Assembly (NCBI GenBank): GCA_038889235.1 | Contig: JAWAHN010000003.1 | Coordinates: forward strand, 438,058-470,057 | Reading direction: 5' to 3' | Length of the DNA stretch: 32,000 nt | Source: Candidatus Jordarchaeales archaeon | Lineage (GTDB): Archaea > Asgardarchaeota > Jordiarchaeia > Jordiarchaeales > Freyrarchaeaceae | Part shown: piece by piece, positions 2,304 through 6,812 of the stretch | How positions within the stretch are numbered: position 1 is the first letter of the stretch | Layout of the letters: every line of letters begins with the position of its first letter | Notes under the pieces: generated by a model | Told to the model about the DNA's origin: nothing | Databases searched by the model: none | What the model saw: only the letters and a program-made list of their open reading frames with translations | Translations under genes and position numbers: made by a program

Positions 2304-3623
2304 CTACCGCGCAGTCTTTCTTAGAAGCTCGACCGCCTCGCTGAGGGGTATTTGTTCGTAGCGCTTTTTTTCATCCCTCAGGTAGACTGTCACGGTTCCA
2401 GTTGACTCCTCTTTCTCCCCGACGAATACCAGGGCGCGTATCCCCTTCTTCTCCGAGTACTCAAGCTGCTTCTTGTGGCTTCTCCTCATAAGGTCCACTT
2501 GAGTCTTCAATCCCTCCTTTCGCATCTCTTCAGCAACTTTGCGAGCGTAGCCTTTACACTTCTCATCCAAAGATATGACGAAAACCTGTGTACACGTTTT
2601 CTTTTCGAGGCTGAAAAGCCCCAACTCCAGCCCGGCGTCTATGATCCTCTCAAGCCCTATGCTCACACCCGTCGAGGGAGTCTTAGGACCGCCGTAGCGC
2701 TCTATGAGGTCATCGTATCTTCCTCCTCCCGCCAGTGCGCCTATCCTAGGCTCGTCCACGTAGACTTCAAGTATTGGCCCGGTGTAATAATCTAGCCCCC
2801 TCACCATGCTTAGGTCGAGCACTATGTTGTTCTTGTGACTAGAAAGGTCCATTAGTTCACGCAAGTGTCCGACCGCTGTCCTAACGTTGGCGTTACGCCC
2901 AAATTTGTCCTCCAGCTCGTCGAGCGACTTTTCCGGGTTTCCCGAAACCCCCACGGTCTCCATTATCTTTTCGACCTCAGCTTCCCCCAGCCCTGCCTTG
3001 AGTAGCTCGCCTCTCACCCCACTCTCCCCTATCTTCTCGAGCTTGTCTATAGCTCTGAACACCTCTAAGACTTTCCCTTCACCATAGCGGGAAATGTTGA
3101 ACTCCTCCTCGAATATACCTTTCAAGAGGCGTCTGTCGTTCAGTCTTACTCTGAACTCCTTGTAGCCGAGTGATTCCATCACGTCACACACGACATCGAC
3201 TATCTCAGCGTCAGCTTCAGGGTAGGGTGATCCGACTATGTCCGCATCACACTGCCAGAACTCCCTGTAGCGCCCCTTCTGGGGCCTTTCATGTCTCCAG
3301 ACGCGGCCAATGTGGTACCTTTTGAATGGCAGCGTTGGAGGGTTGCTGGCGACAAACCTGGCAAGGGGCACTGTGAGGTCGTATCTGAGGGCAAGCCACT
3401 CGCCGCTCCACGGGTCCTGGAAGCGGTAGAGAAGCTTGGATTCAACCTCCTCCCCATACTTGCCCTTCAACGTCTCCCAGTACTCTATTGCGGGTGTCTC
3501 CAAAGGGTCGAACCCGTAGCGTTCAAAGACGTCCTCGATCACACTTATAACTCTCTTCCTTAAGAGGAGGACTTCTGGGGGGAAGTCTCTGAAGCCGCGG
3601 GGAATACTATACCTGGTCGACAC
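2304..3623 (-). CDS. hisS: Histidyl-tRNA synthetase
   Basis: PRGFRDF, LRYDLTVP, GRYREFWQCDADIVG, RGLDYYTG, GGGRYDDL, GLERI motifs; GTG start at 3623 after GGAGGTG Shine-Dalgarno. The ORF-track extension to 3788 runs into the tRNA gene and is spurious. Confidence 0.97.
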   Translation of the reverse strand: MSTRYSIPRGFRDFPPEVLLLRKRVISVIEDVFERYGFDPLETPAIEYWETLKGKYGEEVESKLLYRFQDPWSGEWLALRYDLTVPLARFVASNPPTLPFKRYHIGRVWRHERPQKGRYREFWQCDADIVGSPYPEADAEIVDVVCDVMESLGYKEFRVRLNDRRLLKGIFEEEFNISRYGEGKVLEVFRAIDKLEKIGESGVRGELLKAGLGEAEVEKIMETVGVSGNPEKSLDELEDKFGRNANVRTAVGHLRELMDLSSHKNNIVLDLSMVRGLDYYTGPILEVYVDEPRIGALAGGGRYDDLIERYGGPKTPSTGVSIGLERIIDAGLELGLFSLEKKTCTQVFVISLDEKCKGYARKVAEEMRKEGLKTQVDLMRRSHKKQLEYSEKKGIRALVFVGEKEESTGTVTVYLRDEKKRYEQIPLSEAVELLRKTAR

Positions 3624-3693
3624 GGACACCTCCGCACTGACCAGCAGTTTACCGCCTGGAGAACGAGGCGGACTAGTGGAAGTGAAGTATGAG

Positions 3694-3842
3694 GGTGCCG
3701 GGCGGGATTCTCGTGGATTGTATCCAAGTCGAACCCGCGACCTCGGGACTGCATGCACACGTGCTTTGCTGCCCCGACCTGGGTCCACAGTCCCGCGCTG
3801 GTGGGGCTTCCTACAGCTCTCCCAGGCTGAGCTACCGGCACC
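3694..3842 (-). tRNA. tRNA-His(GTG) with encoded G-1, C73 and four predicted introns (3818-3800, 3784-3767, 3765-3749, 3727-3708)
   Basis: Removing 19+18+17+20 nt from 149 nt gives G-GTGCCGG-TA-GCTC-AGCCTGGGA-GAGC-G-CGGGA-CTGTGGA-TCCCG-AGGTC-GCGGG-TTCGACT-CCCGC-CCGGCAC-C (75 nt, all four stems perfectly paired); BHB or BHB-like motifs at each junction; CCA not encoded. Confidence 0.9.
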
Positions 3843-3916: not shown

Positions 3917-4330
3917 TTACGTCCCGTTTTCACGCTTTTCTTTTGAGTTGCCTAGTATGCTCCTAACTTTCTTGACTGTCCCCCTAAGCTTCTGGAGCAT
4001 TAGCCCAAGCTGGTGTTCGGGTATCCCTGCGGCGACCAGTATCACTTGACCAGCTTCCATGGCGATGATGAAGCCCTTGGTCCCGTGTACTATACACTCT
4101 GTCACATCACCCTGGATGAACGCTTTAGAAATAAGGTTGCATGCGGAAAAAAGGCTGAAAGCGCTCTCTAGGGCCTTCTCCGGGTCAGAGTACTTGAGCC
4201 TTTCAACTACCATGTTCCCCGAGAGGTCCAACACTAGGATGTCGACATTTCCTGGGTAGTTCTCGTTCTTCAGGAGAGTATTCAATTTCTCTGCAATCTC
4301 CCTACTTATGGGACTAGCGCGCTCTATCAA
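3917..4330 (-). CDS. Roadblock/LC7 domain protein
   Basis: Pattern ILVLDLSGNMV...TECIVHGTKGFIIAMEAGQVILVAAGIPEHQLGLML fits the roadblock/LC7 (MglB-like) fold; likely TTG start at 4330. Confidence 0.7.
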   Translation of the reverse strand: MIERASPISREIAEKLNTLLKNENYPGNVDILVLDLSGNMVVERLKYSDPEKALESAFSLFSACNLISKAFIQGDVTECIVHGTKGFIIAMEAGQVILVAAGIPEHQLGLMLQKLRGTVKKVRSILGNSKEKRENGT

Positions 4331-4526
4331 GGTTTCCTCGCCTCGGAAAAAGAAGGGGCTACAAGAACACCACACACTGAGAAGCGGTGAAATATAAAGA
4401 TTCTAGTTAAGACATACATTTCTTCAGCTTTGGAGCCCAAGGGGGTTCCATGCTTCTTCACGGAGGAGGAAAAAGAAATATTGAGGATAGCGCGATGTAT
4501 CAGCAAGAGGCACGGAGGAGAGCGAT

Positions 4527-5015
4527 TTGGGTGCATTCGCTCCCGGTGGTCTCGAAAGCGCGGCAACGCTTCCGAAAAATATCTTGAAATACTGCATGCA
4601 GTGCTCGCTGTGCTCGAGCGTCTGCCCCACAGCCCGCCTCGTCAAAGAGTTTAACCCTAGACGCATAGTTTGGGGAGCGATCCTGGGTCTCGAGGATGAC
4701 GCTGTGGAAAACGGCAGCGTGTGGTTCTGCCTTAGTTGCCACCTCTGCTCCGAGGTATGCCCCATGAAGGTGAAGGTTTCAAGCCTGATGACGTTCTTCA
4801 AAAACCTGCTCGCTGAAAGGGGGAAAATCCCAGAGGGGGTCCTACAGGAGGCGAGCATGATTTTCAAGACTGGGAGAGGGGTGCCATACTCGCCCGCCGT
4901 CGAGAAGAGGAGGGCTTCTCTATCGCTTCCCCCACTTCCACCCGTTGACATCGAGGAGATTAAAAAGCTGCTGGGCAGGCTGAAGCTACCGATCGAGGGA
5001 GGAGAGGGGAAATGA
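4527..5015 (+). CDS. hdrC: Heterodisulfide reductase subunit C-like (copy 1)
   Basis: CMQCSLCSSVCP and WFCLSCHLCSEVCP 4Fe-4S motifs, NPRRIV; overlaps hdrB start. Confidence 0.9.
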   Translation: MGAFAPGGLESAATLPKNILKYCMQCSLCSSVCPTARLVKEFNPRRIVWGAILGLEDDAVENGSVWFCLSCHLCSEVCPMKVKVSSLMTFFKNLLAERGKIPEGVLQEASMIFKTGRGVPYSPAVEKRRASLSLPPLPPVDIEEIKKLLGRLKLPIEGGEGK

Positions 5016-5884
5016 CGGATTATTCGCTCTTCTTGGGGTGCATTATCCCCTTACGGTTCCCCTTCCTTGAAGCGTCCTCGAGGAAAGTGCTTGACCTTCT
5101 GGGCGTGAGGTGTGAAACGCTTAAGGGTGCAAGTTGCTGCCCCGACCCTGTTGGCGTCCAGTCTGTTAGCTTCAAGGCGTGGCTTTACATTGCTGCTAGG
5201 AACCTAGCGCTCGCCGAGGAGGAGGGGAGGGACGTTTTGACTCTTTGCAGCGGGTGCTTTGAGACCCTTAAGACCGCCAGGGAGATTCTGCTGCAGAGCC
5301 CCGAGCTCATGGAGGAGGTGAACGAGGCCCTAAAGAGCATAGATAGGGAGTTTAAGGGGGAGGTAGACGTCGTGCACCTAGTCGAAGCTATATACAGAGT
5401 TGGGCCCGGAAAGGTGAGAAACATGGTTGTGAGGGAGCTAGACGCCGGGGTGGCGGTTCACTACGGGTGCCACTTGTTGAGGCCAAGCGAGCACCTTAGG
5501 TTCGACGACCCGGAGAACCCGAGGAAGCTGGATGAGCTCGTCGAGGCGCTCGGTGCCCGGAGCGTTGAGTACGAGTACAAGCACCTGTGCTGCGGGGCGA
5601 CTGTGGGCAACGTCAAGAGGGATTTAGCCCACGAGTACGTTAAGTGGAAGCTTAAGTTTATCGCTAGATCGGGGGCGGAGTGCATGGTTGTAGCCTGCCC
5701 CTTCTGCTTTGCGCAGTACGACCTTGGACAGGTAGAGCTCAGTAGGAGGGGGGAGAGGTTCAACCTGCCAGTCTTCTACTACCCTGAAATGCTCGGCCTA
5801 GCTTTAGGTTGCAGCTATAGGGAGCTTGGGCTACACATGCACAGGACGAGCGTGGAGCCCTTCCTGAGAAAACACATACTTTAA
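5012..5884 (+). CDS. hdrB: Heterodisulfide reductase subunit B-like (copy 1)
   Basis: FLGCIIP, SCCPDP, TLCSGC, HYGCHLLRP, LCCGA, VACPFC cysteine-rich CCG motifs. Confidence 0.93.
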   Translation: MTDYSLFLGCIIPLRFPFLEASSRKVLDLLGVRCETLKGASCCPDPVGVQSVSFKAWLYIAARNLALAEEEGRDVLTLCSGCFETLKTAREILLQSPELMEEVNEALKSIDREFKGEVDVVHLVEAIYRVGPGKVRNMVVRELDAGVAVHYGCHLLRPSEHLRFDDPENPRKLDELVEALGARSVEYEYKHLCCGATVGNVKRDLAHEYVKWKLKFIARSGAECMVVACPFCFAQYDLGQVELSRRGERFNLPVFYYPEMLGLALGCSYRELGLHMHRTSVEPFLRKHIL

Positions 5885-6224: not shown

Positions 6225-6812
6225 TTAGAACGCGAGCTGCAACACGTTGTAGTACACTACGTCCCCTTGCCTGTTTACTAAAGCCATCGTGAGCTGCTTC
6301 CTCGTGCTAACTGCGAGCTTGGTGACGCGGTCGAGCTCCTTAAGGTCTATGGGGGTTCCCTCGGTAACAATGTATATGAGGTTCTTCGCCACTTCCTCTC
6401 CAGCCTTGCAACCCCTCGGGTATAACCTGAAGTCTATTCCGCCGCCGAAGCCCTGCTTGACAACATACCCTCTGCTCCTCAAGTCCCTGTAGACGAGGTA
6501 CCGCACCCAGACTTTTGGATCCCTTTTACTGAAGTGCTTCACAAGGTCGCGGAACGCGTACTCCCTCCCTTCTTCGTCCTTAACTATGAGTCTTCCACGC
6601 TCCACAAGTAGCAGGGCTTCAACCGGTGTTAGGTGGAGCTTGCCGTCGCCTTCAAACTCGCCGTAGCTACCTTTCTCGTATATCTTTCTGCCCTCCTCTT
6701 CGCTTACGACAACCTCGTCGTCTCTCAGCAGGCCGGAGAAGACCTCTAGTTCTTCCTCTCCTTCCTCTTTGAAGAATAACCCCTCTTGCTGCTCTTCCCT
6801 TTCTTCCTCCAT
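6225..6812 (-). CDS. endA: tRNA splicing endonuclease subunit, probably the non-catalytic (beta/structural) type
   Basis: LHLTPVEALLL, YLVYRDLRSRGYVVK, DFRLY, STRKQLTMA motifs; the catalytic His position is not His. Confidence 0.85.
   Translation of the reverse strand: MEEEREEQQEGLFFKEEGEEELEVFSGLLRDDEVVVSEEEGRKIYEKGSYGEFEGDGKLHLTPVEALLLVERGRLIVKDEEGREYAFRDLVKHFSKRDPKVWVRYLVYRDLRSRGYVVKQGFGGGIDFRLYPRGCKAGEEVAKNLIYIVTEGTPIDLKELDRVTKLAVSTRKQLTMALVNRQGDVVYYNVLQLAF

Follow-up and report, generated by a model that had tools for sequence, protein, structure and literature searches.

A conserved tRNA-His gene, apparently divided into five exons by four short introns, in an Asgard archaeon of the Jordarchaeia

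The tRNA-His locus and its neighbours

The stretch of DNA analysed here, hereafter the window, is 32,000 nt long (G000:C3:438058-470057) and belongs to a genome, G000, of 2.14 Mb that is 95% complete and not closed. Coordinates given without a contig name are those of the window. The sequencing runs that contain the stretch are hot-spring metagenomes. On the minus strand lies a tRNA-His gene of 149 nt, which begins with G-1 at 3842, ends with the discriminator base C73 at 3694 and does not encode the CCA end. Taking out four inserts of 19, 18, 17 and 20 nt, here named introns D, A, B and T, leaves a 75-mer that ARAGORN calls as tRNA-His(GTG) with all four arms, and the inserts account for 74 of the 149 nt. 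A first-pass annotation of this DNA had described a 75 nt cloverleaf after four removals, at 22/23, 37/38, 38/39 and 59/60, and had remarked that half of the gene is intron; both descriptions hold. The extra G-1 is present opposite C73, and it is encoded in all five family genomes. The boundaries of exons and introns are listed in Table 1 together with the flanking features.

Table 1. Coordinates of the tRNA-His gene parts and of associated features in the window.
Feature	Coordinates	Strand	Basis
Exon 1: G-1, acceptor 5' strand, D-stem 5' strand, D-loop to position 22	3819..3842	-	sequence comparison
Intron D, 19 nt, at 22/23, HBh'-type BHB	3800..3818	-	BHB scan
Exon 2: positions 23-37 (D-stem 3' strand, 26, anticodon stem 5' strand, C32 T33 G34 T35 G36 G37)	3785..3799	-	
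Intron A, 18 nt, canonical 37/38 position	3767..3784	-	BHB scan
Exon 3: single base A38	3766..3766	-	A in 6/6 sequences
Intron B, 17 nt, at 38/39, relaxed BHB	3749..3765	-	
Exon 4: positions 39-59 (anticodon stem 3' strand, variable loop, T-stem 5' strand, T54-C59)	3728..3748	-	
Intron T, 20 nt, at 59/60, strict hBHBh'	3708..3727	-	BHB scan
Exon 5: T60, T-stem 3' strand, acceptor 3' strand, discriminator C73	3694..3707	-	
Promoter-like BRE/TATA element GAAAACC-TTTAAAAA	3866..3880	-	read from sequence; function inferred
hisS (histidyl-tRNA synthetase)	2304..3623	-	Pfam tRNA-synt_His 1.9e-46, HGTP_anticodon 9e-19
EndA paralogue without catalytic His	6225..6812	-	Pfam tRNA_int_endo 2.8e-21, tRNA_int_endo_N 1e-14

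The promoter-like element stops 23 nt upstream of G-1, a distance that is kept in the orthologues. On the other side of the gene, and on the same strand, hisS lies 70 nt downstream, with a Shine-Dalgarno sequence GGAGGTG (3633-3627) and a GTG start at 3623, as judged from the sequence and its orthologues. The order of tRNA-His followed by hisS is kept in 5/5 family genomes. In four relatives the spacer between the two genes (3624-3693 in G000) contains a TATA-like TTAATTTTAT box (TTAAGATTTTAT in the sister-genus genome G004) and a T-rich stretch. The G000 spacer has neither, which suggests that tRNA-His and hisS are co-transcribed in this genome.

Further features of the surroundings can be noted. 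Within the spacer, at 3652-3671 on the minus strand, there is an inverted repeat CCGCCT (3671-3666) / AGGCGG (3657-3652) with an 8 nt loop and no T-run after it. An archaeal-type PEP carboxylase (PEPcase_2, 4e-188) is encoded at 599-2200 on the minus strand and a CCG-domain protein resembling heterodisulfide reductase at 5012-5884 on the plus strand. The open reading frames at 3917-4375 and 4424-4951 gave no Pfam match.

The tRNA-His gene escapes the standard finders. ARAGORN did not call the unspliced gene in the window or in the genome, whether introns were allowed or not. The Rfam covariance model for tRNA did not find it either, at the gathering or at the E<=10 threshold. Over the whole 32,000 nt window no tRNA was reported by ARAGORN or by the Rfam library. 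The expectation, voiced in the first-pass annotation, that such tools may miss the gene is thus borne out for these two programs.

Orthologues, intron motifs and the tRNA genes of the genome

Using BLAST with the tRNA-His locus we found orthologues in three genomes of the same genus and in one genome from another genus of the family. The comparison set comprised six distinct sequences, namely those of this genome (G000), of genomes G001-G004 and of the metagenome contig L184; G000-G003 represent four species of one genus, while G004 and L184 represent its sister genus in the same family. All six sequences splice to 75 nt and share the same exon parse, apart from the D-arm insert, which the sister genus lacks. 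In comparison with G000 the exons are identical at 69-73 of 75 positions (92-97%), whereas the introns are 45-79% identical. Exon 1 is the same in all six sequences except for C/T at position 17. Two of the few changes in the exons are compensated: the pair G28:C42 of G000, which spans both anticodon-loop introns, is A28:T42 in relatives, and at 26:44 the G26/A44 combination has become A26/G44 in G003. Furthermore, G004 and L184 lack the D-arm insert altogether, with the gap falling precisely on the predicted junction, and these sequences therefore provide a natural intron-less allele.

The tRNA-His of G001 is identical to that on a public contig of Candidatus Jordarchaeia archaeon isolate QC4. 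A scan with the first 16 nt gave QC4 as the only useful match among the matches listed, the others being mostly bacterial tRNAs. The first-pass annotation had referred to Thermoproteales-type archaea for non-canonical and multiple introns; the genome is instead that of an Asgard archaeon of the Candidatus Jordarchaeia, as this match of the same-genus orthologue in G001 indicates. In the same order, genome G006 has a tRNA at the published coordinates of Freyarchaeia tRNA-Met #35 (PMC11291895).

We did not find a Freyrarchaeaceae tRNA-His by BLAST, by the 5' exon (2 mismatches), by an anticodon-plus-intron pattern, by the 3' exon (3 mismatches) or by hisS synteny. Matches to the anticodon-plus-intron pattern were rejected, as they fell in a dehydrogenase gene, and the 3'-exon matches (3 mismatches) were rejected as tRNA-Met and tRNA-Arg. 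At five Freyrarchaeaceae hisS loci (L188-L192) no tRNA-His stands beside hisS. These loci have a conserved element of ~150 nt about 60-200 nt upstream of hisS, which lies downstream of a promoter-like TTTATATC box and directly before the Shine-Dalgarno sequence of hisS. Within it are a hairpin CCAACG...CGTTGG and an 8 bp long-range helix GGCTGGAG / CTTCCAGCC. The element is no tRNA; it may be a structured leader.

We then scanned the 149 nt precursor for BHB motifs with a 4 bp central helix and 3 nt bulges that are cut after their second base. In G000 the motif of intron D has the central helix TGGG/CCCA, the bulges AGA and CCA, an inner helix of 3 bp and an outer helix of 1 bp. Among the four species of the genus intron D measures 15-19 nt and its intron-side strand reads CCCA, CCCG, CCTG or CTCA, with the pairing to TGGG always 4/4; the h' helix has 3 bp in G000 and only 1-2 bp in the relatives. 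Intron T in G000 combines the central helix TTCG/CGAG with an inner helix TGGAT/ATCCA (5 bp) and an outer helix of 5 bp, which is the T stem. In all six sequences this intron has a 4/4 central helix, an outer helix of 5 bp and an inner helix of 3-7 bp, the last being kept through compensatory changes (TGGAT/ATCCA, TGGT/ACCA, TGGGC/GCCCA, TGG/CCA and a longer form that begins with TGGAGGT).

For intron A the scan gave the central helix CTGT/GCAG, the bulges GGA and CAA and an inner helix CCC/GGG (3 bp) in G000; each of the six sequences has a 4/4 central helix here and an h' of 2-5 bp. Its outer helix is the anticodon stem of 5 bp, which is formed only once intron B has been removed. The motif is consequently HBh' in the primary transcript of every sequence and becomes a strict hBHBh' once the 38/39 insert is out. 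Canonical BHB geometry, with 4/4 central pairs, is found for introns D (where present), A and T in every orthologue. Per 5000 shuffles, the observed BHB score of the G000 introns was reached 12 times for D, 30 times for A, 24 times for B (best of two registers) and 0 times for T.

These results agree closely with the motifs proposed in the first-pass annotation. Its 19 nt insert at 22/23 with a weak outer helix and its strict BHB around a 20 nt insert at 59/60 both reappear in the scan. The strict BHB that it placed at 37/38 stands as to the motif, which was recovered exactly, with the refinement that strictness is reached only after removal of the 38/39 insert. Its description of the 38/39 motif as relaxed is also apt, the 17 nt insert having no canonical BHB in G000.

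Metatranscriptome X8, from the same study, gave 0 locus reads among raw reads at about 3% sampling. The RNA-library run X4 gave one contig of 1502 nt from a related strain (90-95% alike), which carries the locus in unspliced form and may represent DNA or precursor. Exon joints of tRNA-His were seen in none of four runs, with X8 sampled at about 3%, X4 giving the one unspliced contig and X10 giving nothing. Inside the gene the X4 contig differs from G000 by one base, at window position 3813 in the loop of the D-arm intron; in the flanks there are many changes and small deletions.

In order to place the gene among the tRNA genes of its own genome, we surveyed G000 (95% complete), for which ARAGORN reports 7 tRNA genes without introns and 14 with one intron allowed. 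A heuristic based on the acceptor and T-arm finds ~33 tRNA-like loci of 75-207 nt (median ~130 nt), among which only a tRNA-Arg(CCG) on contig C6 is uninterrupted. By the same heuristic the present locus is the only one of the ~33 with the G-1 and C73 pairing, and 0 of 39 intact His-type anticodon hairpins in this unclosed genome lie in a tRNA context on a heuristic check. The locus at 3842-3694 is therefore probably the only tRNA-His(GUG) gene of this archaeon. A heuristic strict-BHB solver gave 0-4 introns per solved gene and left tRNA-His and about 14 more plausible loci unsolved. It parsed both tRNA-Phe(GAA) (C1:758710-758857) and tRNA-Cys(GCA) (C2:264787-264943) as four-intron genes, so that tRNA-His is not unique in this respect. 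Heavy interruption is the norm for the tRNA genes of G000, and four introns are not unusual there. Two tRNA-like loci of 207 nt (C1:907829 and C1:1018102), which the solver did not solve, may hold more introns.

With this survey at hand, we considered whether the locus could be a decaying or unprocessed relic, the working tRNA-His gene lying elsewhere, possibly in the unassembled 5% or in split form. Such a relic would fit the absence of visible processing in the RNA runs (X8 at about 3% sampling, X4 with one unspliced contig), a genome that is 95% complete, and an intron B motif that in G000 is the weakest in the family. However, the exons are strongly constrained and their stems change in a compensatory manner while the introns drift, and the promoter, the G-1/C73 pair and the hisS synteny are kept in five genomes. 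The heuristic search of G000 found no second candidate locus, and with only 7 genes visible to ARAGORN without introns and a median length of ~130 nt, interruption does not set this gene apart from the other tRNA genes of the genome. We consider a relic highly improbable. Collectively, our data make it very probable that 3842-3694 on the minus strand is a real, conserved and functional tRNA-His gene cut into five exons by four introns.

The abutting anticodon-loop introns and exon A38

Introns A and B abut on either side of a single base. Intron A ends in GCAG-NA throughout the six sequences; the conserved A of position 38 comes next, then 13-20 variable nt and T39. Because the 3' cut of intron A falls after the second base of the CAA bulge and a 7 nt anticodon loop is needed, exon 3 consists of A38 alone.

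The motif of intron B is less regular. In every sequence the 5' strand of its central helix sits inside intron A, where it overlaps with the GCAG of the latter. In the sister genus (G004 and L184) the motif is complete, with a 4/4 central helix CAGT/GCTG, the bulges AAG and AAT cut after their second base, and an outer helix of 4-5 bp formed by the G-rich 3' part of intron A with positions 40-43. G001 and G002 have 3/4 central pairs and an inner helix of 4 bp with a compensatory change (GCGC/GCGC vs GCGT/ACGC). The canonical register has 1/4 central pairs in G000 and 2/4 in G003, the two genomes that carry GCAGCAA in place of GCAGTAA. A register shifted by one base, with a 4 nt 5' bulge, restores 3/4 central pairs in both; it is flanked by an outer helix of 5 bp in G000 or 3 bp in G003 and, in G000, by an inner helix of 3 bp. 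Across the sequences intron B is flanked by h of 3-5 bp and/or h' of 3-4 bp.

In G000 we found no canonical BHB for intron B, either before or after removal of intron A. Hand checks of the inner-intron boundaries 75-91, 76-92 and 77-93 gave no BHB, and these were rejected. The GCAG/ATGC register, which has the 5 bp outer helix, was rejected as a productive cut as well, since it would cut one base early and leave a 6 nt loop. In the shifted register, cleavage according to the canonical ruler would lose A38 and leave such a loop, and the productive cut is therefore expected after A38. Nearly all of intron B of G000 (3749-3765, minus strand) is taken up by two palindromes that overlap, CACGTG and TGCATGCA.

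The missing canonical motif in G000 raises the question of whether there are only three excision units. The 36 nt between G37 and T39 would then be a single canonical intron of composite build, or a twintron with its inner portion leaving first, and the last base of the insert would become position 38. Nested introns with ordered removal are known in Crenarchaeota (PMC3728597, which cites Tocchini-Valentini 2009), and in G003, G001, G004 and L184 both candidate bases for position 38 are A, so that these sequences cannot separate the two parses. In the other two the parses differ: a composite insert would make position 38 a G in G000 and a C in G002, with A elsewhere, whereas the four-intron parse gives A38 throughout. 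All six sequences keep, at 4/4, the GCAG and NAA elements that put a cut right before A38. In G000 the other inner-intron boundaries checked by hand yield no BHB, and a single 35 nt intron in the G000 anticodon loop, likewise checked by hand, has 1/4 central pairs and was rejected. A three-unit gene is improbable on this evidence, if somewhat less so than a relic.

Given four introns, the geometry around A38 bears on the order in which A and B are removed. The helices of the two introns share the bases C-A-G and therefore cannot form at once. If intron A is removed first, intron B keeps 0-2 of its 4 central pairs; if intron B is removed first, intron A gains its outer helix of 5 bp. The central helix of intron B borrows the 3' end of intron A, which suggests that the 38/39 intron is spliced first, around A38, and an order of B then A never releases the one-base exon. 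On these structural grounds we put the chance that structure enforces the removal of B before A at about even.

The folds do not favour one conformation. MFE folding of the anticodon region (37 and 70 C) gives structures that differ between orthologues, and the B-first form is not shown consistently. Intron B of G000 ends in GCAG, the tetramer of the intron A central helix, and its MFE fold consequently extends the anticodon stem by CTGT/GCAG. That neither conformation is favoured by MFE folding would suit a gene with four real introns in which the 37/38 intron leaves first, as an HBh' substrate, or in which there is no fixed order, with a highly permissive endonuclease recognising the 38/39 intron by nothing but its inner helix and bulge. 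Intron A does present a full HBh' motif in the primary transcript of all sequences, and in G000 and G003 the intron B cuts fit the canonical geometry relative to their 3'-side helix (inner for the 5' site, outer for the 3' site) and not to one common central helix. On the other hand, four simultaneous cuts in the anticodon loop would set the one-base exon free as a nucleotide. We regard the opposite or unfixed order as rather unlikely. The fuller proposal, that introns A and B are interlocked around a one-base exon with mutually exclusive motifs, intron B taking over 3-4 bases of the intron A central helix, that the 38/39 intron must go first and that hisS is possibly co-transcribed in G000, is put forward tentatively and with somewhat less than an even chance of being right as a whole.

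The genome encodes enzymes of the kind that such a precursor would need. It has two EndA genes (PF01974, 111 and 77 bits). One is a catalytic-type paralogue of 196 aa (G000:C1, L140:1192-1782) that keeps the Tyr, His and Lys positions (Y..H..K) and has Aeropyrum pernix EndA, chain 3p1z_B, as its best match (4e-47). The other, of 195 aa, lies 2.4 kb upstream of the tRNA-His gene in the window (Table 1); a Val of this protein aligns with the catalytic His (GIDHAP) of its paralogue, and it is probably a structural, beta-like subunit. A catalytic and a non-catalytic EndA of ~180-200 aa each is the pattern of alpha2beta2 enzymes, and the two proteins would make up a putative heterotetramer. Endonucleases of the alpha2beta2 type are linked to lineages with non-canonical or multiple introns and with hBH and HBh' substrates (PMC4090602). 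RtcB is encoded by one gene (600 bits).

These elements can be assembled into a proposed model of processing. The BRE/TATA promoter of the tRNA-His gene itself would drive a transcript of ~150 nt, a precursor with four short BHB introns, and the archaeal splicing endonuclease would excise the D-arm, the two anticodon-loop and the T-loop introns, its catalytic and His-less EndA subunits acting as they do in broad-specificity alpha2beta2 enzymes. The 38/39 intron would go first, after which the anticodon stem would adjoin the 37/38 intron and complete its strict motif. The exons would be joined by RtcB. Transcription, actual excision and splicing order are all inferred here from sequence. If the model is correct, the 4 nt 5' bulge in two species would imply that the Jordarchaeal endonuclease sets the intron B cut from the inner helix and not by the canonical 4 bp ruler. 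The abutting 37/38 and 38/39 introns would furthermore offer a compact and testable substrate, both for the permissiveness of an Asgard endonuclease and for RNA structure that enforces a splicing order.

Comparison with other interrupted tRNA genes

The tRNA genes of G000 fit the heavily interrupted type of the Jordiarchaeia (Jordiarchaeaceae/Freyrarchaeaceae), in which most genes have several intervening sequences. For the Jordiarchaeaceae and Freyrarchaeaceae a recent preprint gives 2.0-2.4 intervening sequences per tRNA gene and up to five in one gene, and it names D-arm inserts as those missed by tRNAscan-SE (Goswami et al., bioRxiv 10.64898/2026.10.13.758758). Four introns are also listed for tRNA-Arg(TCT), tRNA-Ile2(CAT) and tRNA-Leu(GAG) of Freyarchaeia and for tRNA-Trp of Atabeyarchaeia-2 in Supplementary Data 4 of Valentin-Alvarado et al. 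2024 (PMC11291895), a study that reports introns in 92-95% of tRNA genes. The first-pass annotation had held that four introns would be at or beyond the described maximum. This view has to be given up: because the 2024 table lists four and the 2026 preprint up to five, four introns per tRNA gene are no record and the known maximum is unchanged.

The present gene is like the published Asgard tRNA genes in its lineage, in its multiple short non-canonical BHB introns and in a D-arm insert of the kind that annotators miss. It differs in that a tRNA-His is recovered here, whereas the published table for the complete Freyarchaeia genome has 38 tRNA genes and no entry for His, Cys, Phe or Glu (PMC11291895). 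The Freyarchaeia tRNAs for these four amino acids may be too interrupted for tRNAscan-SE, as the tRNA-His gene described here is for other finders. The searchable portions of PMC11291895 and of 10.64898/2026.10.13.758758 make no mention of a one-base exon, of abutting 37/38 and 38/39 introns or of a splicing order, nor did a full-text search of the searchable literature turn up any account of a one-base tRNA exon. Only the splicing order and the odd 38/39 geometry of tRNA-His may hence be new.

The recovery of a tRNA-His gene that ARAGORN and Rfam miss is useful for the annotation of Asgard MAGs and for establishing their tRNA complements. The published tRNA tables of the lineage are incomplete, with no tRNA-His given for the complete Freyarchaeia genome. 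The comparison of six sequences, including the natural allele without the D-arm intron, adds to the picture of repeated intron gain in the Jordiarchaeia.

Outside the Asgard archaea the closest parallels are found in the Thermoproteales and other Crenarchaeota (Sugahara 2007/2008 and Tocchini-Valentini 2009, as reported in PMC3728597 and PMC4090602). BHB, hBH and HBh' introns in the D-arm and T-loop are common to both. The Crenarchaeota, too, have nested introns in which removal of one intron is needed before the motif of another can form (PMC3728597, citing Tocchini-Valentini 2009), much as the motif of the last anticodon-loop intron would be completed here. In both, the introns go with an endonuclease of the alpha2beta2 type, predicted here from the two paralogues (PMC3728597, PMC4090602). 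The difference lies in the phylum and in the number of introns, which according to PMC4090602 reaches up to three per tRNA gene there, compared with four in the gene described here.

A more distant parallel is the red alga Cyanidioschyzon merolae (PMC3728597), which likewise has several BHB-type introns per tRNA gene, with inserts in the D-loop and T-loop. In that eukaryotic nucleus the order of removal tracks motif stability, and the introns fold independently and are not interlocked, in contrast to the mutually exclusive anticodon-loop motifs that we tentatively propose for the Jordarchaeal tRNA-His.
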